Assembly (NCBI GenBank): GCA_036388775.1
Contig: DASVRD010000002.1
Location: forward strand, 1,482-65,481
Direction of reading: 5' to 3'
Length of the DNA: 64,000 bases
DNA from: Pyrinomonadaceae bacterium
Lineage (GTDB): Bacteria; Acidobacteriota; Blastocatellia; Pyrinomonadales; Pyrinomonadaceae
The notes beneath the pieces were generated by a model that was not told the origin of the DNA, did no database searches, and saw nothing but the letters and a program-made list of their open reading frames with translations. Below, piece after piece: positions 1,461-64,000 of the stretch; position 1 is the stretch's first letter, and each line of letters begins with the position of its first letter. The position numbers and the translations under genes are program-made.

Positions 1461-4400
1461 ATGCTCACCGAAACAATTTTACTGGTCGCCGATTCCGACG
1501 CCGAGCAAAAAACTCAGGACGAGCTGCATCGGCAACTGGCGCTTTTTCAGCTTTCTTACGACCCGATTTTCGCCTCGGATTTCGATGGCGGAATTGTTTA
1601 TTGGAATCAAGGCTGCGAACAACTCTACGGTTATTCAATCGGCGAAGCCCTCGGCAAATCGAGCCATGCGCTGATGAAAAGCGATTTTCCCGTTTCTTTC
1701 GATGATTACCGGCAAACGCTTGAAAAAACAGGGCGCTGGACCGGAAAAATCCGGCGCTTATGCAAAGACAATCGCGTTTTGACAATTGAAAGCCGCCAAA
1801 TGCTGACCGCAATCGGCGGCAAACGGATCGTTCTGGAAGCCAACCGCGATGTCACCGAACAAAGTCTCGCTGAAGAAAAACTGCGTGAGGCGGAAGAACG
1901 CTATCGCGCTTTTATCGAACAAAGCTCCGAAGGAATCTGGCGTTTTGAATTGGACGAGCCGATTCCGACAACTCTCGCGGTCGAAGAACAGCTAAAGCTT
2001 GCCTACGAACGCGGCTTTCTCGCCGAATGCAATGACGCGATGGCAAAAATGTACGGCTTCGATTCCGCCGACCAAATCATCGGCGCTCGCTTAGCTGATT
2101 TGTTTGTCACCGAAGACCCCGCAAACGAGGCTTATCTTCGCGCTTTTCTCGAATCGGGTTATCGTCTGACGGAAGCCGAATCGCACGAAAAAGACGCCGA
2201 CGGGCACGATGTTTATTTCAGCAACAATCTCATCGGAGTCGTCGAAAACGGAAAATTATTTCGAGCCTGGGGAACGCAGCGCGACGTGACCAAATTGAAA
2301 GAAAGCGAAAAAGTGCTGGTACGCTATCGCCTCGTTTCCGCACAGGCGCGCGACATTGTTTTGATGGTTCGACCGACGGGCGAAATCGTCGAAGCGAACG
2401 CGGCAGCGGCGCGGGCTTACGGTTACACGCAGGCAGAATTGCTGACAATGAATATTGCCGATTTGCGCGCGCCCGATAGCTTGACCGAATTGGCGCGACA
2501 GATCGAACAGGCAAATCTGCACGGCATTTTGTTTGAAACCGTTCACCGCCGCAAAGACGGAATAACCTTTGACGTTGAAGTAAGCGCAGTCGGCGCGGAC
2601 ATCGGCGACGAGCGTTTTCTGCTGAGCATCATCCGCGACATCAGCGAAAGAAAACAAGCCGAAGAAAAATTACGCGAATCCGAAGTTCGCTTCCGCAAAA
2701 TGGCGGACAATTTGCCCGTAATGGTTTGGGTAACCGACGCCGACGGAAGCTGCACTTATTTAAATAGATTATGGTACGAGTTCACTGGGCAAATGCCGGA
2801 GACAAGCTTAGGTCTCGGCTGGATTTCAGCGGTGCACCGGGACGACCAAAAGCGTGCCGAAGAAGCGTTTTTGTCCGCCAACGAGCGACGCGGTGAGTTT
2901 TACGTCGAATATCGGCTGCGCCGCCGCGATGGCGAATATCGCTGGATGATTGATTCGGCGCAGCCGCGTTTTGACGAAAGCGGCGAATTTTTAGGTTATA
3001 CCGGCTCGGTCGTTGATATTCACGAGCGTAAAGTCATCGAACAACAAGTGAGCTTTCAGCTCAATCTGACGCAAACCATTACCGACAATACACAGTCGTG
3101 TCTGCTGATGATGGACGCCGACGGGTTTTGCACATTTGCGAATCACGCGACCGAGCGCGTCACAGGTTTTAAACCGGAAGACTTAATCGGCGAGATTCTG
3201 CATTATAAAATTCATCACACGCGCCCGGACGGATCGCCTTTTCCAAAAGAACAATGCCCGCTCGACAAAGCGCTTCCGTTGCACGAAGCGGTCGTCGGTT
3301 ACGAAGATGTTTTCGTTCACAAAAACGGGCATTTTTATCCGGTGCGCTGTTCGGGACGCCCTATTTTCAAAAGCGGCGAACCGGTCGGAACGGTAATCGA
3401 AGTTCAAGACATCACGGAAGAAAAACGCGCCCGCGAAGCTCTGCTTAAAGCCGAGCGTCAGGCGGCGGAGGAATATCAGGCACTGCTCTCGCGTATTGTC
3501 CCGCTCGCGCAAACGCTCGGCACGGCGCGCGATTTGACCGCGATTTACCGGGCAATCGGCGATTTCGTTCGCGCTTCGATGCCGTGTATCGGGTTTTTCG
3601 TTTCGTTTTACGATTCGGATAAAAATTTGCGGACGGGGGCTTACGGCTGGGCGGAAGGCGCGGAGCTTGACATTGCCAGTTTGCCGCCGACGCCGCTCAC
3701 TCAAGACGGCGGACCGAATTCGCAAGCCATCTTCCAGCAACAAACAATCGTCGTCGGCAATTACCGGCAAACGATGGCAAATCGCCCGCACATAGTCATT
3801 GGTGAGGAAAACGGAATCGTCCCCGATTCGTCGCTTATCGCGCCGATGATTGTGATGGGAAGAATCATCGGCACTTTGGAAGTGCAGGCTTACGAATCCG
3901 CCGCTTTTAACCGAGACCACGTTGTCTCGCTCGAAATGGCTTCAAATCTGGCTGCGGTGGCAATTGAAAACGTCCGTTTGCTCGAAATCGAGGCGAACGC
4001 CCGGCAGGAAGCCGAGATTGCAAATCGCTCAAAAGACGAGTTTCTGGCGGTTCTCTCACACGAGCTGAGAACGCCGCTTAATTCGATGTTCGGCTGGGTG
4101 CGAATGCTCAGCACCGGGCAGCTCGACGCCGAAAAAACGCGCCGCGCGGTTGAAGTCATCGAACGCAACATCAATTTGCAGACGAAATTGATTGAAGATA
4201 TTTTGGACGTTTCCAGAATTATCTCCGGGAAAATCAGGCTCGAAAACAGGCAGTTCGATTTCCTGCCGCTGATCAAATCCGTAACCGAAGTCGCGCAGCC
4301 GACCGCCGAAACCAAAAACGTCGAGCTAGTGACCGAATTCGATTCCGAAGCCTGTATTTTGCAGGGCGACGCGGAACGCTTGCAGCAAGTCGTCAACAAC

Positions 4401-5138
4401 TTGCTGACCAACGCGATCAAATTTACCCCGTCGGGCGGCAAAATCGTCGTCAAGCTCGATTGCAACGAAACCCGCGCCGAATTAAAAGTCATTGATTCGG
4501 GAGTCGGCATCGAGCCGGAGTTTTTGCCTTTTGTTTTCGACCGCTTTCGTCAGGCGGACAGCTCTTCAAAACGCAAACACGGCGGTCTCGGTTTAGGTTT
4601 GGCAATCGTCAAACACCTCGTCGAAATGCACGGCGGCGAAGTTTTCGCCGAAAGCGCAGGCGTCGGCAAAGGCGCGACTTTTACAATTCGCCTGCCGATG
4701 CACAGCCGCGTCGGATTGAGTGAAGCGGAAAAAATATTCGCGGTTGAAGAAAAAGAACAGGATTTGGAAAAATTGAATTTGCTTGTCGTTGACGACGACA
4801 CGGATGCGCTCGAAATGCTGAGAACAATGCTGTCCTCGCGCGGCGCGCAAGTTCAAACGGCTGCGTCGGCAATCGAAGCTCTGAAAATTGTCGAAAAAAA
4901 AGTCCCGGATGTTTTAGTCAGCGACATCGGAATGCCGGAAATGAACGGAATGGAGTTTATCGGCAAAATCCGGCAATCAAAAAACAAACGTCTGCGGCAA
5001 ATTCCGGCAATTGCTCTGACAGCTTACGCTTCAGCCGAAGACCGCGAGCGCATCTTAGCTTCCGGGTTTAATCAATATCAACGAAAGCCGGTAAATTTCG
5101 CCGATTTAATTGCCAACATCAAAAATATTTGTTCGTAG
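1461..5138 (+). CDS. cytoplasmic multi-PAS/GAF hybrid sensor histidine kinase with C-terminal receiver
   Basis: Track ORF 1401-5138; I prefer ATG 1461 (MLTETILL). Several PAS-like modules and a GAF-like block. H-box FLAVLSHELRTPLN, ATPase motifs DSGVGI and GGLGLGLAIVKHLVEMHGG, receiver LLVVDDD...DVLVSDIGMPEMNG...ALTAYA. No TM segment seen. Confidence 0.9.
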   Translation: MLTETILLVADSDAEQKTQDELHRQLALFQLSYDPIFASDFDGGIVYWNQGCEQLYGYSIGEALGKSSHALMKSDFPVSFDDYRQTLEKTGRWTGKIRRLCKDNRVLTIESRQMLTAIGGKRIVLEANRDVTEQSLAEEKLREAEERYRAFIEQSSEGIWRFELDEPIPTTLAVEEQLKLAYERGFLAECNDAMAKMYGFDSADQIIGARLADLFVTEDPANEAYLRAFLESGYRLTEAESHEKDADGHDVYFSNNLIGVVENGKLFRAWGTQRDVTKLKESEKVLVRYRLVSAQARDIVLMVRPTGEIVEANAAAARAYGYTQAELLTMNIADLRAPDSLTELARQIEQANLHGILFETVHRRKDGITFDVEVSAVGADIGDERFLLSIIRDISERKQAEEKLRESEVRFRKMADNLPVMVWVTDADGSCTYLNRLWYEFTGQMPETSLGLGWISAVHRDDQKRAEEAFLSANERRGEFYVEYRLRRRDGEYRWMIDSAQPRFDESGEFLGYTGSVVDIHERKVIEQQVSFQLNLTQTITDNTQSCLLMMDADGFCTFANHATERVTGFKPEDLIGEILHYKIHHTRPDGSPFPKEQCPLDKALPLHEAVVGYEDVFVHKNGHFYPVRCSGRPIFKSGEPVGTVIEVQDITEEKRAREALLKAERQAAEEYQALLSRIVPLAQTLGTARDLTAIYRAIGDFVRASMPCIGFFVSFYDSDKNLRTGAYGWAEGAELDIASLPPTPLTQDGGPNSQAIFQQQTIVVGNYRQTMANRPHIVIGEENGIVPDSSLIAPMIVMGRIIGTLEVQAYESAAFNRDHVVSLEMASNLAAVAIENVRLLEIEANARQEAEIANRSKDEFLAVLSHELRTPLNSMFGWVRMLSTGQLDAEKTRRAVEVIERNINLQTKLIEDILDVSRIISGKIRLENRQFDFLPLIKSVTEVAQPTAETKNVELVTEFDSEACILQGDAERLQQVVNNLLTNAIKFTPSGGKIVVKLDCNETRAELKVIDSGVGIEPEFLPFVFDRFRQADSSSKRKHGGLGLGLAIVKHLVEMHGGEVFAESAGVGKGATFTIRLPMHSRVGLSEAEKIFAVEEKEQDLEKLNLLVVDDDTDALEMLRTMLSSRGAQVQTAASAIEALKIVEKKVPDVLVSDIGMPEMNGMEFIGKIRQSKNKRLRQIPAIALTAYASAEDRERILASGFNQYQRKPVNFADLIANIKNICS

Positions 5139-5266
5139 TTCTTAATTTGTTCGTTGATCGTAGTTCGTTGTTCGTTGCAAATCGCCAAAGAACGTTGTCG
5201 TTTTAATTTCAAACGCTACTTAAAACTGAGAAAAACAACGAACGACGAACCACGAACTACGAACAA
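5129..5266. repeat. heptamer-array hairpin element (TTCGTWG type), imperfect, fills convergent intergenic gap
   Basis: Outer 13-bp perfect stem: ttgttcgtagttc (5129-5141) with gaactacgaacaa (5254-5266). Inner stem 5163-5177 with 5236-5250 (15 bp, 1 mismatch). Arms are tandem TTCGTTG/TTCGTAG units. The left arm contains the kinase stop codon TAG 5136-5138, and the right arm ends 1 nt before the Crp stop codon (5267-5269). Confidence 0.7.
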
Positions 5267-12713: not shown

Positions 12714-12763
12714 AAAAACAAAAGAGCGAGATGAATCAAGTTCAAACTCGCTCTTTTGTTTTT
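12714..12763. terminator. bidirectional terminator between convergent genes
   Basis: aaaaacaaaagagcgag (12714-12730) is the perfect complement of ctcgctcttttgttttt (12747-12763), with A-run and T-run flanks. Confidence 0.75.
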
Positions 12764-28170: not shown

Positions 28171-29133
28171 ATGGATGAAGCAGTAGTTCCAAATTCAATT
28201 CGTTGTCGTTATTGCGGTCAGCGCAATCAGGTTAAAACCAATGGAAACGCGGGCGGGGGAAACGCGGTTTGCGGAAAATGCCGTTTGCCGCTTTCCGACG
28301 CGCCGCACAAAAAATTCGCGGATTTAAACAAACACGATTATGTTCACCCGGAGGACAGCCGCGCGCTCGCCGCTCTGCGCGCGATTCCCGGTATTGATTC
28401 GGCTTTAAAGAAATTGCTCGCCGTGACGGGCGAATCGGCGATTCGCGTTTCGTTTATGGCTTCGGCGGTTAAAGTCACGCCGCTGCAATGTCCCGATTTA
28501 TACGCCAAATTGCAAATCGCCTGCACGACGCTCGGCGTTGATATGCCGGAGCTTTACGTCCAGCAAAGCCCGATTGTTAATGCTTTTACAGGCGGAGTCG
28601 AAAAACCGATTATCGTTTTGCACTCGTCTCTGATTGAAAGATTGACGGACGAAGAAGTTTTGGCGGTCGTCGCGCACGAAGTCGGGCATATTCACGCCGA
28701 ACACGTTCTTTATTTAACCGCCGCCAGATTAATCGAAGCGCTTGCAACCGTTGCGCTCGCGGCGACTCCGGTTGTCGGAATTGTCAAAGACTTGATTACG
28801 GCTTCGATGCGCGGCGCTTTGCTCGCCTGGGCGCGGAGGGCGGAATTGTCCTGCGACCGCGCCGCTTTGCTCGTCACGCAGGATGCGAACGTCATCGGGC
28901 GGACGATGATGAAATTGTGCGGCGGAACTTTCGCGTCGAAAGTTGATTACGATCTTTTCCTTGAACAAGCGCGCGAGTTTCAAGCCAACTACGACAAAAA
29001 ACAGCTCGACCGTTTTTGGGCTGACATTATTTCTTCGGGAATGACGCATCCGTTTCCGGTCTGGCGCGTTGCGGAAATCCTAAAATGGGTTGAAGGCGGC
29101 GAGTATCAAAGTCTGATGAACCGCGCTAAGTAA
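28171..29133 (+). CDS. M48 family zinc metallopeptidase with N-terminal zinc-ribbon
   Basis: 320 aa. CRYCGQ...CGKCRLPL (2x CxxC), HEXXH as VVAHEVGHIHAEH, and a downstream E in AELSCDRAA. Confidence 0.8.
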   Translation: MDEAVVPNSIRCRYCGQRNQVKTNGNAGGGNAVCGKCRLPLSDAPHKKFADLNKHDYVHPEDSRALAALRAIPGIDSALKKLLAVTGESAIRVSFMASAVKVTPLQCPDLYAKLQIACTTLGVDMPELYVQQSPIVNAFTGGVEKPIIVLHSSLIERLTDEEVLAVVAHEVGHIHAEHVLYLTAARLIEALATVALAATPVVGIVKDLITASMRGALLAWARRAELSCDRAALLVTQDANVIGRTMMKLCGGTFASKVDYDLFLEQAREFQANYDKKQLDRFWADIISSGMTHPFPVWRVAEILKWVEGGEYQSLMNRAK

Positions 29134-29148
29134 AACAAGTAAATAGTC

Positions 29149-29200
29149 AATAGTAAATCGCGAATCGTGACTGGAAAATTACGATTCGCGATTTACTATT
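29149..29200. repeat. heptamer-array hairpin element (TAAATCG type)
   Basis: aatagtaaatcgcgaatcgt (29149-29168) is the perfect 20-bp complement of acgattcgcgatttactatt (29181-29200), with a 12-nt loop. More degenerate 7-mer units flank both arms (29138-29214). It starts 5 nt after the M48 stop codon. Confidence 0.85.
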
Positions 29201-29288
29201 TACGATTCACTATTGAACGATTTACTAAATCCTTGAATTAAGGTAATAAAGATGGAAAAGGAAATTCGCGGTTTCCTTTTTCAAAACG

Positions 29289-53880: not shown

Positions 53881-54026
53881 AAACAGAATTCTCCGTAAAA
53901 AAAGCAAAACCAGATTAAATCGGTTCGATTCTTTGCGGCGAGAAAAAATCTGTGAGCGGTGCAAAGCAGGTGTTAAGCGGCGTTTGAAAGAAATGCGAAT
54001 CAGGCTCTCAAAGTCGAAAAAGCGTG

Positions 54027-54067
54027 AAAAAAGAGCGGATTTCAATATTTGAAATCCGCTCTTTTTT
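54027..54067. terminator. strong hairpin with A/T-run flanks downstream of the NYN gene
   Basis: aaaaaagagcggatttcaa (54027-54045) is the perfect complement of ttgaaatccgctctttttt (54049-54067). Confidence 0.75.
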
Positions 54068-54081
54068 CAACTGCCCAATTT

Positions 54082-56474: not shown

Positions 56475-57827
56475 ATGAGTTTACCTTTAGTTGCCATCAT
56501 CGGACGCCCTAATGTGGGGAAATCTACGCTGTTTAATCGCTTGACGAAAACGCGCAACGCGATTGTCGGGGACCAGCCGGGAATCACGCGCGACCGGATT
56601 TACGGTGAAGTCGAATGGCGCAGCGGGCGCTTTTCGCTTGTTGATACGGGCGGAATCGTGCCGGACGACGAAGCCGTGATTCCCAGCAATATCTTCAAAC
56701 AAGCCGAGTTCGCCATCGCCGAAGCGCAGGCGATAATCTGGGTTGTTGACGCGCGCGCCGGGATTACGTCGCTCGATCAGGAACTCGTGAAATTGCTGCG
56801 GATGACCGGAAAACCGATCATCGTCGCCGCCAACAAAGCCGAAACAAACCGCGTTGACCACGAGGCGCAGGAATTCGCGCAGTTCGGTTTCGACGCGATT
56901 ATGCCGGTTTCAGCCGAACACGGCGACGGAATCGGCGACCTTCTCGATCTGCTTTACGAAACTCTGGATTTCGCGACGGTTTCGGAAGAAAAAAAGCCGG
57001 ACGAAATCAATCTCGCTATTATCGGGCGTCCGAACGTCGGGAAATCTTCGCTTTTAAATAAATTATTGGGCGAAGAGCGCGTGATTGTCTCGCCGATTGC
57101 CGGAACGACGCGCGACGCGATTGACACGACATTCGAGTTTGAAAATCAGAAGTTTCGGTTGATTGACACAGCCGGAATTCGCCGCAAAGGCAAAACTACG
57201 GAAGCGGCGGAAAAAATGTCGGTGATTATGGCGCGCAAATCCCTGGAGCGCGCAGACATCGCCGTTGTCGTCATTGACGCGACCGAAGGCGCGACGAATC
57301 TAGACGCAAACATTGCCGGATATGCGATTGACGAAGGCTGCGGCGTGATTTTGGCGATTAATAAATGGGATTTGATTGCCGACAAAGAAACCAACACCGC
57401 GCTCGAATTTGAACGGCAATTGCGCGACCAGATGAAATTCCTGGATTTCGCGCCCGTTGTCACGATTTCCGCATTATTGGGACAGCGAGTTTCAAAAATT
57501 CTGCCGCTCGCCGTGCAAATCAATGAGGCGAGACATCTCCGCGTGCCGACTTCAAAGCTCAACAAGTTTTTTGAAGAAACAATCTCGCAGCCGCGCGGCG
57601 GCGGAACGCCCGCGCCCGTTAAAGGCGGCTTTTCGCGTCTGCACATTCAATATTTAACCCAAGTCGGAGTTCGTCCGCCGACTTTTCTTTTATTTACTTC
57701 GGGCGGCAAAGCCGGGCTGCATTTTTCTTACACGCGCTATCTGGAAAATCGCCTGCGTGAGGAGTTTGAATTTTTCGGAACTCCGATTAAATTAGTTGAG
57801 CGTCACAAAATGCGTAATAAAAAGTAA
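56475..57827 (+). CDS. der: ribosome-associated GTPase Der (EngA), two GTPase domains + KH-like domain
   Basis: 450 aa. GRPNVGKSTLFN and GRPNVGKSSLLN P-loops, DTGG/DTAG, NKAE/NKWD. Confidence 0.95.
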   Translation: MSLPLVAIIGRPNVGKSTLFNRLTKTRNAIVGDQPGITRDRIYGEVEWRSGRFSLVDTGGIVPDDEAVIPSNIFKQAEFAIAEAQAIIWVVDARAGITSLDQELVKLLRMTGKPIIVAANKAETNRVDHEAQEFAQFGFDAIMPVSAEHGDGIGDLLDLLYETLDFATVSEEKKPDEINLAIIGRPNVGKSSLLNKLLGEERVIVSPIAGTTRDAIDTTFEFENQKFRLIDTAGIRRKGKTTEAAEKMSVIMARKSLERADIAVVVIDATEGATNLDANIAGYAIDEGCGVILAINKWDLIADKETNTALEFERQLRDQMKFLDFAPVVTISALLGQRVSKILPLAVQINEARHLRVPTSKLNKFFEETISQPRGGGTPAPVKGGFSRLHIQYLTQVGVRPPTFLLFTSGGKAGLHFSYTRYLENRLREEFEFFGTPIKLVERHKMRNKK

Positions 57828-57837
57828 GTTTTCACCG

Positions 57838-57919
57838 CCGAGACGCAGAGACGCAGAGAGAAGTTAAAGAGAAAAAATAAAGAGTTTAATTTTGTTTTCT
57901 CTGCGTCTCTGCGTCTCGG
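57838..57919. repeat. heptamer-array hairpin element (GCAGAGA type)
   Basis: ccgagacgcagagacgcagaga (57838-57859) is the perfect 22-bp complement of tctctgcgtctctgcgtctcgg (57898-57919), with a 38-nt A-rich loop. It starts 11 nt after the der stop and ends 12 nt before the next start. Confidence 0.85.
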
Positions 57920-57931
57920 TGGTTAAAAATT

Positions 57932-59404
57932 GTGGAAATAGTTTTGTTGGTTGCAAGATTGATTCTCGCCGCTGTTTTCGCAGTTGCCGGAATTGCCAAA
58001 CTCTTTGACCGCGCGGGCAGCGAAAAGGCGATTGTTGATTTTGGAGTTCCCGAATCAATTGCCAAGCCTTTGAGTTTGCTGTTGCCACTGGCGGAAATTG
58101 CGACCGCGATTTTGCTGCTGCCGCTTGCGACGGCTTGGTTCGGGGCAGTTTCAGCGCTCGCGCTGCTGCTCGTTTTTGTCGGCGGCATCGCTTACAATTT
58201 TGCGCGCGGAAACACGCCGGATTGTCATTGTTTCGGGCAAATTCATTCGGAGCCGGTCGGCTGGTCAACTTTAATTAGAAATTCGATTTTAGCCGCAATC
58301 GCCGGTTTTCTGGTTTTTGCAGGGCGCGAAACGGCGGGCGCGAGCGCGTTTGCATGGCTCGATGATTTAAACGCGGCTGAAAAAATGAATTTAATTTTCG
58401 GCGTTTTAACAATCGGCTTGCTCGCGTTTGTCGCTTTTAAGCTCAAAAGCATTCAGGCGCAACAGATCGTTTTGCAAAGACACATCGAATTGCTTCAATT
58501 AGGCGAAGGCTCTGCGGCAGTAGAACACGAACACGCCGCGCCGCCCGCCGAAGGTCTTCCGCTCGGCGCGCTGCTTCCCGCTTTTTCTTTGCCGGACACA
58601 AACGGCAAACAATTTGTGACCGAAGATTTATTGAAAACAAACAAGCCTTCGCTCTTGTTTTTTGTCAGCCCAAGCTGTAAACCCTGCGCGGGGCTGTTGC
58701 CGGAAATCGAAGATTGGCGGCGACAGTTCGGCGAAAAAATAAATTTCGTCTTTTTTAGTTCGGGCGCGGCAAAGGAAAACGTCGAAAAATTCGGCTCGGA
58801 TAAAATCGTGCTGCTCCAAAAAGACAACGAAACGATGACGCTTTTCCGCGCAAAATGGACTCCGACCGCAATACTGATCAATGCCGACGGTACTATCGGC
58901 AGTCGTTTGGCTACCGGCGATGGGGCGATTCGCGCTCTTGCGCAATCCATTCAACCGAATTTATCGAACGGTCACGTTCCGAAGAGCTTTTTAATTTCGC
59001 AAAACGGCTCGAAAATCGGAGAGCAAGCACCGGAATTTTCCCTGCAAAATCTGGACGGGAAACAGGTAAAATTAGAAGATTTTCGCGGCAAGAAAACTCT
59101 GCTTTTGTTTTGGGGAACAGCCTGTGGTTTTTGTCAGACGATGCTGCCGGATTTGCAAAAATGGGAACGTCAAGCTAACCGAGCCGCCGAATTAGTCGTG
59201 GTTTCGCGCGGCGAAATTGAAACAAATCGGAAACAAAATCTGAAGTCGCCGATTTTGCTCGAACAAGCCACCGAAATCCAAAATCTGTTCGGCGCAAACG
59301 GAACGCCGACCGGAGTAATAATTGATGAAGACGGAAAAATCGCTTCGGACGTAGCTGTCGGTGCCGATGAAGTTTTCGCTCTCGTTGGAGAATATAAAAG
59401 ATAG
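57932..59404 (+). CDS. MauE/DoxX-like membrane domain fused to two thioredoxin-fold (TlpA/redoxin-like) domains
   Basis: 490 aa. 4-5 N-terminal TM helices with PDCHCFG. Two CxxC domains: FFVSPSCKPCAGL and LFWGTACGFCQTM. Confidence 0.75.
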   Translation: MEIVLLVARLILAAVFAVAGIAKLFDRAGSEKAIVDFGVPESIAKPLSLLLPLAEIATAILLLPLATAWFGAVSALALLLVFVGGIAYNFARGNTPDCHCFGQIHSEPVGWSTLIRNSILAAIAGFLVFAGRETAGASAFAWLDDLNAAEKMNLIFGVLTIGLLAFVAFKLKSIQAQQIVLQRHIELLQLGEGSAAVEHEHAAPPAEGLPLGALLPAFSLPDTNGKQFVTEDLLKTNKPSLLFFVSPSCKPCAGLLPEIEDWRRQFGEKINFVFFSSGAAKENVEKFGSDKIVLLQKDNETMTLFRAKWTPTAILINADGTIGSRLATGDGAIRALAQSIQPNLSNGHVPKSFLISQNGSKIGEQAPEFSLQNLDGKQVKLEDFRGKKTLLLFWGTACGFCQTMLPDLQKWERQANRAAELVVVSRGEIETNRKQNLKSPILLEQATEIQNLFGANGTPTGVIIDEDGKIASDVAVGADEVFALVGEYKR

Positions 59405-59406
59405 AC

Positions 59407-59474
59407 TACAGAGATACAGAGGCACAGAGAGAAAATTAAAACAATAAACATCTCTGTATTTCTGTGTCTGTGTG
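59407..59474. repeat. heptamer-array hairpin element (ACAGAGA type), imperfect
   Basis: Left arm 59407-59430 (tacagagatacagaggcacagaga) pairs with right arm 59451-59474 (tctctgtatttctgtgtctgtgtg): 24 positions, 2 mismatches, 4 G-T pairs. It starts 3 nt after the stop codon, and the right arm overlaps the predicted tgt start. Confidence 0.65.
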
Positions 59475-60734
59475 TTGAAGTTTGTGGCGGATAAGGCAAT
59501 TGATTGGAAAGTCGCCGCGCGAGAGGGAAATGCGCGAGCCGGGATTTTAAGAACTCGTCGTTCGATTATCGAAACGCCGGTTTTTATGCCGGTCGGCACA
59601 CAAGGCACGGTTAAAGGAATTCGTTTTGAAACCCTCGAAAACGAACTTGATGCGCGTGTAATTCTGGGAAACACTTATCATCTCTGGCTGCGTCCCGGAA
59701 CTGAAATTTTGCGCGCGGTCGGTGGTTTGCATAAATTTAATTCGTGGAATCGCTCGATTTTGACCGATTCCGGCGGATTTCAAGTTTTTTCCCTCACGGA
59801 TTTAAGAAAATTAAAAGAAGAAGGCGTCGAGTTTCGCTCGCACATTGACGGCAGCCTCAGATTTTTATCGCCGGAAATCTCGATGGAGATTCAAGCCGCG
59901 CTCGGTTCCGAAATCGTGATGGTTTTGGACGAATGCCCGCCGGGACAAGCGGATTTCGATTTCGCCCGCAAAAGTCTGGAAATGACCGCGCGGTGGGCGG
60001 CGCGTTCAAAACAAAAATTTAACGAGCTGCAAGAAGCCGGAATGGATACGGGATTTATCGGAAAGGATGAAGGCGGAAGGATGAAGGATGAAAATGAAGA
60101 CAATTCATCTTTAATTCATCCTTCATCCTTCCGCCTTCATCCTTCAGATTTGAGCGGACGACAGGCTTTGTTCGGAATCGTTCAGGGCGCTTCGCATTTG
60201 CCTTTGCGCCGCGAAAGTTTGGAAAAGACTGTGGAAATCGGTTTTGACGGTTACGCTATCGGCGGTTTGAGCGTCGGCGAAGAAAAATCTGTGATGTATG
60301 ACACAATCGAATTTCTCGCGCCGCAAATGCCCGAAAATGCGCCGCGTTATTTGATGGGAGTCGGGACGCCGGAAGATTTGGTCGAAGCCGTTTTTCGCGG
60401 CGTTGATATGTTCGATTGCGTTATACCGACGAGAAACGGGCGAACCGGAACTGCGTTTACTTCGCGCGGCAAAATCAACATCCGCAACGCAAAACACGCG
60501 ACGGATTCCGCGCCGCTCGATGAAAGCTGCGATTGCGCGGTTTGTCGGCGACATTCGCGAGCGTTTTTGCGGCATTTATATCAGACCGGAGAAATGCTCG
60601 CGGCGATTTTGATCTCGCATCACAATCTGGCGTTCTTCCTTGACACGATGAAAAGAGTGCGTCATTCTATCCGACTTGGCATTTTCGGCGAATTCCGTCA
60701 AGACTTTCTCCGGCAAATTAAAGAAAGCGAATAA
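59472..60734 (+). CDS. tgt: tRNA-guanine transglycosylase (queuine tRNA-ribosyltransferase) carrying an about 40 aa insertion
   Basis: 420 aa. ETPVFMPVGTQGTVKG, LTDSGGFQVFSL, VLDEC, LFGIVQG, GYAIGGLSVGE, zinc site CDCAVCRRHSRAFLRH. Start uncertain (GTG 59472, TTG 59475 or GTG 59484). Confidence 0.9.
   Translation: MLKFVADKAIDWKVAAREGNARAGILRTRRSIIETPVFMPVGTQGTVKGIRFETLENELDARVILGNTYHLWLRPGTEILRAVGGLHKFNSWNRSILTDSGGFQVFSLTDLRKLKEEGVEFRSHIDGSLRFLSPEISMEIQAALGSEIVMVLDECPPGQADFDFARKSLEMTARWAARSKQKFNELQEAGMDTGFIGKDEGGRMKDENEDNSSLIHPSSFRLHPSDLSGRQALFGIVQGASHLPLRRESLEKTVEIGFDGYAIGGLSVGEEKSVMYDTIEFLAPQMPENAPRYLMGVGTPEDLVEAVFRGVDMFDCVIPTRNGRTGTAFTSRGKINIRNAKHATDSAPLDESCDCAVCRRHSRAFLRHLYQTGEMLAAILISHHNLAFFLDTMKRVRHSIRLGIFGEFRQDFLRQIKESE
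60063..60144. repeat. heptamer-array hairpin element (GGATGAA type) inside the tgt reading frame
   Basis: aaggatgaaggcggaaggatgaaggatgaa (60063-60092) is the exact reverse complement of ttcatccttcatccttccgccttcatcctt (60115-60144), with a 22-nt loop. It is translated in-frame as KDEGGRMKDENEDNSSLIHPSSFRLHPS. Confidence 0.9.
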
Positions 60735-60779
60735 AACCGGCGCAAAGACAGGCGCGCCGGTTTCCGTCATAAAATTGTT

Positions 60780-61076
60780 ATGGGCAAACAAATTACGGTC
60801 ATTGCTCGTCTTAAAGCCAAACCCGGACTTGAAAGCAGGCTCGAAGAGTTGGCAAAAGGCTTGATTGAACCGACGCGCGCCGAAGAGGGATGCGTCAATT
60901 ACGTTTTGCACCGCGATTTGGAAGACCCTGCGGTTTACTATTTTTACGAGAATTGGCGCTCTCAGGAAGATTTGGATTTGCATTTTCAAACGCCGCATCT
61001 CAAGCGCGCTTTGGAACTCGCGCCGGAAATTTTAGCCGAGCCGCTTAAATTGACCAGACTCGAAATGCTCGGCTAA
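60780..61076 (+). CDS. antibiotic-biosynthesis-monooxygenase (ABM/Dabb) domain protein
   Basis: 98 aa. ITVIARLKAKPG...EEGCVNYVLHRDLEDPAVYYFYENWRSQEDLDLHFQTPHLK is the typical ABM pattern. Confidence 0.75.
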   Translation: MGKQITVIARLKAKPGLESRLEELAKGLIEPTRAEEGCVNYVLHRDLEDPAVYYFYENWRSQEDLDLHFQTPHLKRALELAPEILAEPLKLTRLEMLG

Positions 61077-61096
61077 AAAGCGTAAGATTTTAAACG

Positions 61097-61402
61097 ATGG
61101 AAACGTTAGCAATTATTTTACAGGAAGGCGGAGGCGCGGCAGCGTTGCTTTTTCAGCTCGCGCCGTTTTTCCTGATTTTTATCGTCTTTTATTTTCTCGT
61201 TATCGCGCCGCAGCGCCGCCGGGCGCAGGAAATGCAGAATATGATCACCGAGTTGAAAATCAACGACACCGTTGTCACTAACGGCGGCGTGATCGGTAAA
61301 ATCAAAGAAATCAAAGACAAAAGTTTTATTATTCAAAGCGCCGACAAATCGTTTATCGAAATCGCTCGCTCGGCGGTTGTCGGAAAAGAAGTTGAACCGT
61401 AA
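61097..61402 (+). CDS. yajC: preprotein translocase subunit YajC
   Basis: 101 aa. One TM helix, YFLVIAPQRRRAQEMQNMITELKINDTVVTNGGVIGKI. Located just upstream of secD. Confidence 0.9.
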   Translation: METLAIILQEGGGAAALLFQLAPFFLIFIVFYFLVIAPQRRRAQEMQNMITELKINDTVVTNGGVIGKIKEIKDKSFIIQSADKSFIEIARSAVVGKEVEP

Positions 61403-61458
61403 ATCGTAAATCGTAAATCGCAAGTAGATGTTTATCTTGCGATTTACGATTTACGATT
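61402..61458. repeat. heptamer-array hairpin element (TAAATCG type) between yajC and secD
   Basis: aatcgtaaatcgtaaatcgcaag (61402-61424) is the perfect 23-bp complement of cttgcgatttacgatttacgatt (61436-61458), with an 11-nt loop. The left arm begins in the yajC stop codon (TAA 61400-61402), and the right arm ends 8 nt before the secD ATG. Confidence 0.9.
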
Positions 61459-61466
61459 CACTAAAA

Positions 61467-63143
61467 ATGAAGAAACGTAATATTTTAGTTCGATTTATCA
61501 TTATCGTCGCCGTCACCTTACTGGCGATTTACGCCGTTTTCGGACCTCGACGTGCCCCGGCAGCGGAAGATTTTACCTGGAACGGCATTAAAAACAATAT
61601 CGCCCAAAATATTCACCTCGGACTCGATTTAAAAGGAGGCACGCATCTTGTAATGCGCGTGCAAACCGAGCAATATTTGTCGAAACTGGCGGAGAATAAT
61701 GCCGAAGCCGCCAGGACTGCGGCAACCAAAGCGAATTTGCCCGTCGGCGAAGCCAGAGCCATTGCCGAACCAAATAACCGGAATTTTCAGGTTGTTTTAA
61801 ATACGACGGATGCGGCAAGGCAGCAGGAAATCGCCGATGCGGTGAAAAAAGAAGTTGATTTTAGTCTCTGGACGCAATCAACAACGGGTGATTCGATTGT
61901 CTGGTCGCTTCCTATTCAAGCCCAGGCGACGCTCAGCCGTCAGGCGGTAGATCAGGCAAAAGCGATTATTGACAGCCGCATCAACCGGCTCGGAGTCGCC
62001 GAACCGACGCTGCAAAATCATGGCGCTTCGGATTCGCACCAGCTTCTTTTGCAAATGCCGGGCGTGCAAGACCCGGAGCGAATCAAGAAAACTCTGACCG
62101 TCGAATCGCGTCTTGAGCTGATGAAAGTCGTCACGCCGAAAGGTCAATTTCAGACGTTTCCGACCGAAGACGCCGCCAAAGCGTCGCTCGGCGGCAACGT
62201 TCCGTCAAATCGCCGCGTTTTGCCGTATGTTGAGCGTGAAGACACGCCCGCGAATCAAAATGAACCGAAAGCTAAACCGACGACTTTTGTAGTTGTCGAA
62301 AATCCGCCGATTATTGACGGCAGCGAGCTGCGTGATGCGACGCCGTTCACGGCAGGCGGAAACAGCTATAACATCAACTTCAATTTGAAACCTTCGGGAG
62401 CGCAGAAATTCGGCGCCTGGACGGGCGCAAATATCGGCGAATATCTCGCCATTGTTTTAAACGGCGAAGTAAAGAGCGCGCCTGTAATCAGGGGACAAAT
62501 CTATGACACAGGGCAAATTGAAGGTCGTTTTACGCAGCAATCGGCGGAAGATTTAGCCGTCACGCTCAAATCCGGCGCGCTTCCCGCTCAAATCGAGTAT
62601 CAGGAAGAGCGCACCGTCGGACCGAGCCTCGGAGCGGATTCGATTCGCTCAGGAGTAACGGCTTCAGTCGCCGGGCTGCTATTCGTAATGGCGTTTATGC
62701 TCTTTTATTATCGCGGCGCGGGCGTAAATGCGGTGATCGCGCTGATTCTGAATATGCTGCTGACACTGGCGGCGCTCGTCTGGTTCGGCGCGACGCTGAC
62801 GCTGCCCGGAATCGCCGGTTTGATTTTGGGAATCGGAATGGCGGTTGACTCGAACGTGCTGATTTTTGAGCGCATCCGCGAAGAATGGCGCGCGGGGAAA
62901 ACCATTCCGCAAGCCGTTGATTTAGGTTTCGACCGGGCGTTTATTACAATTATTGACACGCACGTGACGACGATTATTTCTTCGTTACTGTTGTTTATTT
63001 TCGGAACCGGACCGATTCGCGGCTTCGCCATAACGCTGATTTTAGGGTTGTTGATTAACCTCTTCTCGGCAGTTTATGTGTCCCGCACAATTTTCATTTG
63101 GCTTTTGAGCCGCAAACAGCGTGTCGAGACGCTCAGCATCTAG
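61467..63143 (+). CDS. secD: protein translocase subunit SecD
   Basis: Track ORF starts at 61428 inside the hairpin; ATG 61467 (MKKRNILVRFIIIVAV) preferred. Large periplasmic domain, then the C-terminal 5-TM bundle with GIGMAVDSNVLIFERIREE. Confidence 0.9.
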   Translation: MKKRNILVRFIIIVAVTLLAIYAVFGPRRAPAAEDFTWNGIKNNIAQNIHLGLDLKGGTHLVMRVQTEQYLSKLAENNAEAARTAATKANLPVGEARAIAEPNNRNFQVVLNTTDAARQQEIADAVKKEVDFSLWTQSTTGDSIVWSLPIQAQATLSRQAVDQAKAIIDSRINRLGVAEPTLQNHGASDSHQLLLQMPGVQDPERIKKTLTVESRLELMKVVTPKGQFQTFPTEDAAKASLGGNVPSNRRVLPYVEREDTPANQNEPKAKPTTFVVVENPPIIDGSELRDATPFTAGGNSYNINFNLKPSGAQKFGAWTGANIGEYLAIVLNGEVKSAPVIRGQIYDTGQIEGRFTQQSAEDLAVTLKSGALPAQIEYQEERTVGPSLGADSIRSGVTASVAGLLFVMAFMLFYYRGAGVNAVIALILNMLLTLAALVWFGATLTLPGIAGLILGIGMAVDSNVLIFERIREEWRAGKTIPQAVDLGFDRAFITIIDTHVTTIISSLLLFIFGTGPIRGFAITLILGLLINLFSAVYVSRTIFIWLLSRKQRVETLSI

Positions 63144-63144
63144 T

Positions 63145-63211
63145 AGTTCAAGGTTCAAAGTTCAAGGTTCAAAGTTATTTGCTTTCAACCTTGAACTTTG
63201 AACCTTGAACT
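63145..63211. repeat. heptamer-array hairpin element (RGTTCAA type) between secD and secF
   Basis: agttcaaggttcaaagttcaaggtt (63145-63169) is the perfect 25-bp complement of aaccttgaactttgaaccttgaact (63187-63211). Further 7-mer units extend to 63218 and allow slipped registers. It starts 2 nt after the secD stop. Confidence 0.9.
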
Positions 63212-63224
63212 TTGAACTTTTGGA

Positions 63225-64000
63225 ATGATAGAGATTTTTCACAAAATTAACGTTGACTGGATGGGGAAGCGGCATCTTTTTATCGCCCTCTCAGTTGTGA
63301 TTTTATTGGCGGGATTAGCGTCCTCAATCGGTCGTGAAGTCCTTCCCGGCGGAACCGATGCTTTTAATCTCGGCGTTGATTTTCAGGGCGGAACCGTCGT
63401 AACGGCTAAATTTAGAGAAAAACCGGCAGATGAACAAATCCGCACGGCTCTGCAAAATGCCAATGTTTCCGACGCGGTTATTCAAAATTCGCTCGATAAA
63501 CAGGATGAAGTTTTAATTAAAGTACCGCTTATCGGAGCTACGGAAGATGCGAGTGCCGAGGAACAGCGCGCACAGGTTGATGCCGGTCGCGCGCGAGTCA
63601 AACAGGCGCTCGACACCTTTGGAAAAGAAGCCGCCGTTGATCTGGGTTCTGAGTCGGACGCTGTTTATAAAATTGTCGGAACCGACGCCGTGGGCGCGAT
63701 TGCCGGCAGCCAGCTTCGCAATCAGGCGGTCGCCGTCACTTTGCTCGGTCTTTTGGGGATTTTGCTTTTTATCGGATTTCGCTACGACTGGACTTACGGA
63801 ATGGGCGCGATTATCGCTGTTTTGCACGACGTGTTGATTACGCTCGCTTTCTTCTCGATTTTCCAATGGGAAATTGATTTGACCGTGATTGCGGCGCTGC
63901 TCACGCTGGTCGGTTTTTCCGTCAACGATACGATTGTTATTTTCGACCGCATTCGTGAAAATTTAAGTCTGAACCGCAAAGAATCGCTTTACACATTGAC
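63225..64000 (+). CDS. secF: protein translocase subunit SecF, partial (C-terminus right of the window)
   Basis: Not in the track (open at the window end). My translation from ATG 63225: MIEIFHKINVDWMGKRHLFIALSVVILLAG...GVDFQGGTVV...IIAVLHDVLITLAFFSIFQWEIDLTVIAALLTLVGFSVNDTIVIFDRIREN. Confidence 0.9.
   Translation, partial: MIEIFHKINVDWMGKRHLFIALSVVILLAGLASSIGREVLPGGTDAFNLGVDFQGGTVVTAKFREKPADEQIRTALQNANVSDAVIQNSLDKQDEVLIKVPLIGATEDASAEEQRAQVDAGRARVKQALDTFGKEAAVDLGSESDAVYKIVGTDAVGAIAGSQLRNQAVAVTLLGLLGILLFIGFRYDWTYGMGAIIAVLHDVLITLAFFSIFQWEIDLTVIAALLTLVGFSVNDTIVIFDRIRENLSLNRKESLYTL

Follow-up and report, generated by a model that had tools for sequence, protein, structure and literature searches.

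A heptamer hairpin inside the tgt gene

We found that the tgt gene of a soil acidobacterium of the family Pyrinomonadaceae, which encodes the tRNA-modifying enzyme tRNA guanosine(34) transglycosylase (Tgt), carries an in-frame hairpin with arms of tandem heptamers. The gene lies in a stretch of 64,000 nucleotides (nt) of contig DASVRD010000002.1, which was analysed as a whole and is called the window here. The hairpin segment is a real insertion, which is polymorphic among close relatives, and it belongs to a family of palindromic repeats that is dispersed over many other loci. The gene and the parts of the element are listed below.

59472-60734, plus strand: tgt open reading frame (ORF) of 420 amino acids (aa), host of the insert (ORF call; TIGR00430, 496 bits; Zymomonas mobilis Tgt, E = 3e-122)
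60061-60145, plus strand: inserted segment of 85 nt, as compared by blastn and multiple alignment with the closest relative without insert (L084, 10 nt)
60063-60092, plus strand: left arm, GGATGAA-GGCGGAA-GGATGAA-GGATGAA (D-C-D-D, where D is GGATGAA and C is GGCGGAA), peptide KDEGGRMKDE, a single stop-free frame
60093-60114, plus strand: spacer of 22 nt with a weak apical mini-stem (60095-60100 with 60108-60113), its sequence unlike the spacers of other copies
60115-60144, plus strand: right arm of TTCATCC units, peptide IHPSSFRLHPS, all three frames open

The original prediction, made from this DNA alone, had described a perfect 30-bp inverted repeat of GGATGAA-like 7-mers that is read through in a tgt gene with intact catalytic and zinc motifs, and this description holds in all its parts. 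Both arms (left arm, AAGGATGAAGGCGGAAGGATGAAGGATGAA) measure 30 nt and are complementary at 100% of their positions across a gap of 22 nt, and Tandem Repeats Finder assigns them a period of 7 with 4.3 and 4.6 copies. They are tandem arrays of GGATGAA/GGCGGAA units that contain neither an internal palindrome nor GTAG. Folded as RNA, the hairpin reaches -61.3 kcal/mol (z = -10.3), a stability attained by none of 200 shuffled sequences, and folded as DNA it reaches -38.3 kcal/mol (z = -11.3 against shuffled sequences). An identity as intrinsic (rho-independent) terminator was ruled out, as the hairpin was not called by a terminator and promoter scan and has no U-tract, its tail being CAGAUUUGAGC. 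A search of positions 57700-63400 against Rfam 15 returned no family at gathering score; the sub-threshold matches were generic eukaryotic miRNA-precursor hairpin models with 25-41 bits, compared to gathering scores of 43-135. The tgt ORF runs through the element in-frame as ...FIGKDEGGRMKDENEDNSSLIHPSSFRLHPSDLSGRQALFGIVQG, which adds a low-complexity peptide of about 29 residues to the protein. An antisense ORF of 143 aa (60144-60575, minus strand) ends exactly at the base of the hairpin, a trivial effect of the TGA within the GGATGAA units on the strand concerned, which gives no reason to assume a gene there.

The integrity of the host gene is established by its protein product, which matches the Tgt equivalog model TIGR00430 over its full length, far above the cutoff of 307 bits, and retains the motifs DSGGFQ, DEC, LFGIxQG, GGLxVGE, GVGxPxD and CxCxxC...H, including the catalytic Asp residues and the zinc site. 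The Z. mobilis Tgt from the Protein Data Bank (PDB) aligns with it in two blocks that flank the element (query 11-188 and 230-413 against chain residues 15-191 and 195-378), so that query residues 189-229 have merely three counterparts in the crystal-structure sequence. An AlphaFold2 model puts the insert after helix 162-188 and before strand 232-237, in agreement with its predicted location between a helix and the conserved ALFGIVQG strand, and residues 193-220 have a pLDDT below 50. Because the underlying alignment was shallow (42 close sequences), this model (mean pLDDT 68.7, pTM 0.75) served for secondary-structure placement alone. Helix-to-strand links of a TIM barrel are found on the face opposite the catalytic face. 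By this general topology, the link that holds the insert would point away from the catalytic face, which fits with tolerance of the insert.

Insertion polymorphism and repeated use of one site

The comparison covered syntenic contigs on which der, MauE/thioredoxin, tgt, ABM, yajC, secD and secF follow each other in this order. The nearest Tgt proteins and loci come from metagenome-assembled genomes (MAGs) of Pyrinomonadaceae (Acidobacteriota, Blastocatellia). The presence/absence polymorphism proposed for close orthologues in the original prediction was indeed found. L084, the closest relative by DNA (94.5% nucleotide identity within tgt, about 95% across 7 kb of syntenic DNA), is without the element: its blastn alignment with the window is interrupted at 60060 and 60146, where 85 nt face 10 nt, a net gain of 75 nt or 25 codons in the window. 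In the multiple alignment, L001 also lacks the element. L081 and L082, which are independent assemblies of other samples, contain homologous inserts with identical boundaries. Compared with L081, the window copy shows one double compensatory change (A-T to G-C, 60085/60122), one pair altered from G-C to G-T and a single mismatch. In L082, an in-frame deletion of 21 nt has removed three right-arm units, and the stem re-pairs in a new register that includes a complementary change of its own. These comparisons indicate that the element was gained, lost or exchanged inside a group of about 92-95% nucleotide identity. No unrelated taxon was found in which a homologous peptide is encoded by DNA lacking the palindrome, a case that the original prediction had named as evidence against an insertion.

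The concern that palindromes can be generated by misassembly, which the original prediction had raised itself, is unlikely to apply to this locus. The independent and diverged copies in L081 and L082 make an assembly artefact very unlikely, and L208 likewise contains a homologous insert with its own substitutions in an independent assembly. The gene is not a pseudogene by any sign either, with its uninterrupted ORF, all motifs and a full-length family score, and we regard both an artefact and a pseudogene as extremely improbable.

When filled and empty sites are compared (window against L084, and in the multiple alignment), no target-site duplication is visible, and about 10 nt of the target are replaced. 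The native sequence of the empty site in L084, GCGGAAGAT, is similar to GCGGAAGGAT of the element, a resemblance that may hint at guidance of the insertion by microhomology. A match of the empty L084 allele to the element (GGCGGAAG) was considered as a relic and rejected: it coincides with conserved native Ala-Glu-Asp codons, which makes it indistinguishable from native sequence, and it was kept as a possible microhomology.

The position of the insert is occupied recurrently. In a census of 121 sequences, which comprised the window and its 120 best homologues with 70-95% identity, an insert of about 15-65 residues is present at the same position, between DTGF(L/I/V) and (D/N)LSGRQALFG, in 89 sequences (about 74%) and missing in 32. 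All internal length variation of Tgt is confined to this site, with no internal indel elsewhere in the 121 sequences. The inserts represent at least five unrelated hairpin families, and a hairpin is formed in every case that was examined as DNA. The following insert classes were distinguished at the tgt site.

GGATGAA heptamers
GCGGATT/GCGGAAT heptamers: L083, 89.5% nucleotide identity to the window
CCCAAGT heptamers: L030
AVAGG type, a G+C-rich palindrome (GTCAGAACCGCCTGCGGTAGCGGGCGGTT) with peptides SEPPAVAGG...PPATAGGSD: L002, L004, L033
Second G+C-rich palindrome: L014
Degraded remnants: L011, L013, L023

The L083 units, TGCGGAA/TGCGGAT, are one or two changes away from the GGCGGAA unit. 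The palindrome of the AVAGG type is not built of heptamers and is present outside tgt, too. On a neighbour-joining tree, the insert classes are interleaved, and Fitch parsimony requires about 52 class changes compared to a mean of 73 for shuffled labels, which is indicative only as the tree is rough. Composite alleles also exist: L206 and L207 combine a GCGGATT-type hairpin with an adjacent orphan right arm of the AVAGG palindrome. At L093:956-1145, a GGATGAA hairpin resides within the apical loop of the G+C-rich AVAGG palindrome (GGTCAGAACCGTCTGCGGTAGCAGGCGGG...CCCGCCCGCTTGCAGCAGGCGGTTCTGACC), with a combined fold of -122 kcal/mol. These data go beyond the original prediction in that several hairpin families without relation to each other occupy one tgt site across the Pyrinomonadaceae.

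Two further observations concern this loop. The Tgt homologue P0119 (458 aa) carries 81 inserted residues at this site, in which LIDEHSV-like repeats recur every 7 residues, as expected from a long heptamer array because 7 and 3 are coprime. Furthermore, Tgt proteins of other phyla have a short link at the insert position, compared to which the "empty" Pyrinomonadaceae alleles contain a family-specific extension of about 10-17 residues (AGMDTGFxxAE[DN]LSG; loci L001-L035 versus L036-L080). This extension may derive from an earlier insertion into the same loop that became fixed.

The GGATGAA family, its frame rule and its intergenic siblings

A scan of metagenome contigs with the pattern GGATGAAGGATGAA-N5-35-TTCATCCTTCATCC matched more than 120 contigs, which is a lower bound. 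The 64-kb window holds one GGATGAA copy, and the contig counts are metagenome-wide rather than per genome. Many of the contigs listed share the exact 30-nt D-C-D-D arm of the window, and the copies among the matches listed differ from each other in their loops and flanks, while their number of units ranges from 2 to 10. A minority of the copies is located in genes and in-frame, namely in genes for pyruvate:ferredoxin oxidoreductase (PFOR), ValRS, UvrA and an N6/N4 DNA methylase, and all of these are translated as KDEG(G/R)RMKDE...SSFILHPSS. The tgt element is a member of this family, and our analysis extends the original prediction to a widely dispersed repeat that occurs in-frame in other genes as well.

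The uniform translation follows a simple rule. A pure (GGATGAA)n array contains TGA in all three frames, and the GGCGGAA variant opens exactly one frame of the arm, whereas the TTCATCC arm is open in every frame. Every in-gene copy uses this one open frame, because the variant unit alone frees an arm frame from TGA. Existing hairpin loops were considered as a general insertion target and rejected: with an outer stem of at least 9 bp, only about 7 of 105 GGATGAA copies are nested in another hairpin, as in L093, L129 and L148, and none in shuffled controls, so that nesting is real but rare.

A peptide search with a synthetic consensus of the insert gave mostly spurious "hypothetical proteins" of 30-72 aa and no census of host genes. 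These small proteins, which lie over intergenic copies (P0125, P0131, P0137, P0159, P0191), stem from Thermoanaerobaculia, Pyrinomonadaceae, Anaerolineae and the cyanobacterium Stenomitos frigidus, and the GGATGAA hairpin therefore seems to be present in several phyla. For genome annotation this means that such hairpins give rise to spurious small ORFs and to unexplained inserts in conserved MAG proteins.

The original prediction had also noted that the tgt element shares its architecture with intergenic hairpins of the window. Six sibling hairpins with tandem-repeat arms bear this out; they are listed here without strand.

57826-57931: GAGACGCA 8-mers, upstream of the MauE/thioredoxin gene
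59408-59465: ACAGAGAN 8-mers, between the MauE/thioredoxin gene and tgt
61399-61461: CGTAAAT units, in the yajC-secD spacer, with the yajC stop within the first unit
63145-63220: A/GGTTCAA units, beginning 2 nt past the secD stop
29138-29211: AGTAAAT/CGCGAAT units, beginning 5 nt past the stop of ORF 28171-29133
5131-5266: TTGTTCG units with a long loop, taking up all the space from stop to stop where two ORFs converge

All of these siblings start 0-5 nt past a stop codon or overlap it. In the cluster der-MauE/thioredoxin-tgt-ABM-yajC-secD-secF (57826-63220), four of the six spacers bear a 7- or 8-mer hairpin, the exceptions being tgt-ABM and ABM-yajC. Orthologous spacers of genomes that are otherwise more than 90% identical contain other units, other unit numbers, an ordinary G+C hairpin or none. 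Across L081-L084 (90-95% identity), for example, the number of units shifts symmetrically on both arms and the unit family switches, with GGTTCAA or GTTCGTG following secD, while the MauE-tgt spacer of L084 holds a plain G+C hairpin and the der-MauE spacer of L083 no hairpin. Changes in the arms of intergenic hairpins between relatives are symmetrical or compensatory.

The same architecture is widespread in related DNA. In about 0.87 Mb, tandem periodicity of the arms was seen in 181 out of 274 long hairpins. Of these 181, 175 follow a period of 7, with more than 50 kinds of unit, a tally that is biased because about 110 of them are GGATGAA copies which were searched for deliberately. For 68% of 154 tandem-arm hairpins, pooled from Pyrinomonadaceae tgt loci and metagenome contigs with enough flanking DNA, the stop of an ORF of at least 100 codons lies within -15 to +80 nt, and the stop codon of the gene is often part of the hairpin base or first unit. 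An enrichment of stop codons in the heptamer units themselves was considered and dropped, since visual inspection showed a stop on one or the other strand in about half of the units, near a rough estimate of chance. A repeat reported by Tandem Repeats Finder at 3528-3617 was also set aside, as it is a weak periodicity within a long ORF and not a hairpin.

Origin, persistence and known counterparts of the element

We consider it probable (roughly 0.6) that the tgt segment is a copy of a dispersed, non-coding and selfish palindromic repeat, similar to Rickettsia palindromic elements (RPE), REPINs or STRR hairpins, which is tolerated in a disordered loop. The family would be defined by tandem-heptamer arms, composed of GGATGAA and the GGCGGAA variant, around a variable centre. 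One copy would have entered tgt in this lineage, exchanging 10 nt for 85 nt and adding 25 codons, and would have persisted there because the length change is a multiple of three, because the GGCGGAA variant leaves the KDEGGRMKDE frame open and because the copy is located in a helix-to-strand link of the TIM barrel that is modelled as disordered. The ribosome would then translate the insert as a low-complexity peptide of some 29 residues. The normal niche of the family would be at or directly after stop codons, at the 3' ends of genes, where the hairpins probably act as mRNA 3'-end structures, by analogy with what was proposed for REP sequences and cyanobacterial STRR, while the in-gene copy in tgt probably has no function of its own. 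This reading is supported by the insertion polymorphism and the evolving homologous copies, by the dispersed family with its preference for gene ends and its frame rule, by the integrity of the host gene and the location of the insert, and by the recurrent occupancy of the site, the serial or nested events and the equal turnover in orthologous spacers.

Complementarity of the arms is probably maintained by DNA-level processes, in which slippage by 7-nt units is combined with copying of one arm from the other, as in the quasipalindrome template-switch model, with selection on pairing as an alternative or contributing force. The recurrent use of the tgt site, in turn, probably results from a high insertion flux that meets a single permissive site in Tgt and from occasional insertion into or beside an existing hairpin.

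Several points weigh against a selfish repeat that is simply tolerated. Neither a transposase nor a target-site duplication or a transposition intermediate was found in the window, the loci or the comparison of filled and empty sites. A tblastn search for Y1 transposases, with IS200 TnpA and E. coli RAYT as approximate queries, gave nothing significant in about 0.95 Mb, consisting of the window and about 200 short-contig loci, which is a weak negative; RAYT genes are usually single-copy. The loops differ in all copies, which is odd for a simple cut- or copy-and-paste element. More than 50 heptamer units within 0.87 Mb are fitted at least as well by a generic hairpin-generating process as by many separate mobile families. 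The use of a single Tgt site by several unrelated families exceeds what tolerance alone fully explains, and the rarity of nested copies means that targeting of existing hairpins is not a general rule. The modest confidence of the AlphaFold2 model also limits the structural side of the argument.

Heptamer-array hairpins might also constitute a class of bacterial DNA hairpins undescribed outside cyanobacteria, which is made or moved by a dedicated mechanism with a 7-nt register. The tgt position would then be a true preferred integration site, recognised by microhomology (GCGGAAGAT versus GCGGAAGGAT) or by an existing hairpin, or else a hairpin there would have been selected for regulation of tgt. 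This is a possibility that we would not expect to prevail, but if it were true, the occupancy of the site by at least five families would reflect targeting or function instead of tolerance.

The hairpin could also have arisen in place rather than by transposition: replication slippage in a 7-nt register would have expanded a short local sequence, an intra-strand template switch would have copied it as its reverse complement, and the "families" at the tgt site would then be descendants of one old insertion whose units change over time by continued slippage and arm-to-arm correction. Template switching is able to create perfect hairpins, as outlined in bioRxiv 10.1101/2023.04.19.537475, and such an origin would agree with the predominant period of 7 among so many unit types, the symmetrical shifts in unit number between close relatives, the stop codons that often fall within the first unit, the resemblance of the native L084 site to the element and the small distance between the L083 units and GGCGGAA. 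We nevertheless regard it as rather unlikely, given that dozens of unrelated loci, and other genes too, contain exactly the same 30-nt D-C-D-D arm, that the AVAGG palindrome at the tgt site is not heptameric and is found elsewhere too, and that neither arm resembles the empty-site sequence beyond about 9 nt. An explanation by selection, in which the hairpin is a cis-regulatory structure, appears unlikely as well. It could serve as an mRNA ribosome pause between the barrel halves, an RNase III site, a feedback element or a DNA cruciform, and lineages would retain "a hairpin here" from whatever sequence is at hand. Occupancy of the exact site by non-homologous hairpin families in about 74% of the orthologues and the maintenance of stem pairing by compensatory changes are in line with such a function, and so is the richness of the insert in NAU codons (seven GAU/AAU/CAU and one GAC among 29 codons), which are read by the tRNAs that Tgt modifies. 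The hairpin is missing, however, in the closest relatives L084 and L001 and in 32 of the 121 homologues. Alleles are decaying, as in L082 with its 21-nt deletion and in the remnants of L011, L013 and L023; AVAGG-type inserts are not rich in NAU, and neither a U-tract nor an Rfam family was identified. Since intergenic spacers show equal occupancy and family switching, a tgt-specific function is not needed. Very improbable, finally, is a benefit of the peptide itself, as a disordered linker or an interaction motif of Tgt. The insert is translated and retained in several lineages, but the peptides at the site come from unrelated families and differ in length, the reading frame of the right arm varies between alleles, the segment is of low complexity and modelled as disordered, and unrelated enzymes as well as spurious small ORFs over intergenic copies contain the same peptide.

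Within the reading as a selfish palindromic repeat, RPE provide the closest precedent for the behaviour towards host genes, as the original prediction had aptly suggested. According to the account of Ogata et al. (2000/2002) in PMC10969869, RPE are palindromic elements of about 100-150 bp that are inserted in-frame in housekeeping genes. The element studied here resembles them as a dispersed palindromic repeat, with copies on more than 120 contigs among the matches listed metagenome-wide, that is translated in-frame in unrelated genes (tgt, PFOR, ValRS, UvrA and the DNA methylase) whose proteins are apparently functional. It differs by its tandem-heptamer arms, its length of about 82-85 nt, its acidobacterial host and its prevalence at gene 3' ends, and furthermore in that it has no element-wide conserved peptide beyond the heptamer-encoded one and in that several unrelated families reuse one site of a gene. 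RPE are associated with insertion at surface-exposed, structurally permissive positions, with which the low-pLDDT link between helix 162-188 and strand 232-237 of the moderately confident Tgt model may compare. Because the Pyrinomonadaceae host and the heptamer architecture differ, the element is described separately and not filed as an RPE.

The architecture of the arms points to the STRR hairpins of filamentous cyanobacteria, which have tandem 7-bp-repeat arms, are located for example in the hupS-hupL spacer, and for which roles in transcript stability, translational coupling and termination were proposed (PMC2670836). The original prediction, which knew of no heptamer-array hairpin inside a gene, therefore has to be divided: the architecture itself is not unprecedented, because STRR hairpins share it, while the in-frame placement within a gene sets the element apart from STRR, which are described as intergenic. 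Both have pairing arms of tandem 7-bp units, many unit sequences and a preference for short spacers near gene ends, where the sibling hairpins of the window are situated like STRR, and one small ORF over a GGATGAA-type repeat comes from the cyanobacterium Stenomitos. The tgt copy differs by lying in-frame within a coding sequence of an acidobacterium.

REPINs, which are doublets of REP sequences (repetitive extragenic palindromes) that form hairpins and are mobilised by RAYT transposases (PMC3116915), are similar in having conserved inverted ends, a less conserved spacer, a hairpin and compensatory changes, and in being mostly extragenic and persistent at orthologous sites. Here, however, the ends are heptamer arrays rather than GTAG-headed REP palindromes, no RAYT was found in the 0.95 Mb searched with approximate queries, and more unit families occur per genome region than is usual for REPINs. 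[quoted passage not shown] TAACTGA heptamer repeats of Beggiatoaceae, Cyanobacteria and Bacteroidetes are upstream of start codons, with one inverted case (PMC4679880). They share the tandem 7-nt arrays with stop codons, the mostly intergenic position and the distribution over several phyla, but are direct repeats upstream of starts and not 3'-end hairpins. In the open-access literature, we found no description of the GGATGAA motif or of heptamer hairpins in Acidobacteria. By comparison, the element can thus be characterised as RPE-like toward host genes, REPIN-like in its anatomy and STRR-like in its arms, while it lacks defining features of each.

A selfish origin of the tgt insert would extend the paradigm of selfish DNA in coding genes, as known from RPE, to the Acidobacteriota, an abundant soil phylum, and to tandem-heptamer hairpins, which were previously described as cyanobacterial STRR. 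The family follows a clear rule of coding compatibility, in which one variant unit removes the stop that a pure array sets in every frame. Moreover, filled, decaying, replaced and empty alleles form a natural series at a single site of an essential-type enzyme, and this series offers a practical system for studying the origin and movement of hairpins, the complementarity of their arms and their loss.

Other hairpins and small insertions were observed besides the heptamer arrays. At 54025-54069, a perfect 21-nt inverted repeat encloses a loop of 3 nt and is flanked by A/T runs on either side (TGAAAAAAGAGCGGATTTCAA tat TTGAAATCCGCTCTTTTTTCA); it has no heptamer arms and resembles an ordinary intrinsic terminator of the bidirectional type. 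The perfect inverted repeat of 17 nt at 12714-12763 (AAAAACAAAAGAGCGAG ... CTCGCTCTTTTGTTTTT), which has a 16-nt loop, is not heptamer-based either. In more distant relatives, a gene of the Uma2 family (PF05685) is located between tgt and yajC (L207:2429-3088, L208:5243-5950), and a gene with a 23S_rRNA_IVP domain (PF05635) lies upstream of tgt at L208:3583-3870; both are small insertions into the otherwise conserved cluster.

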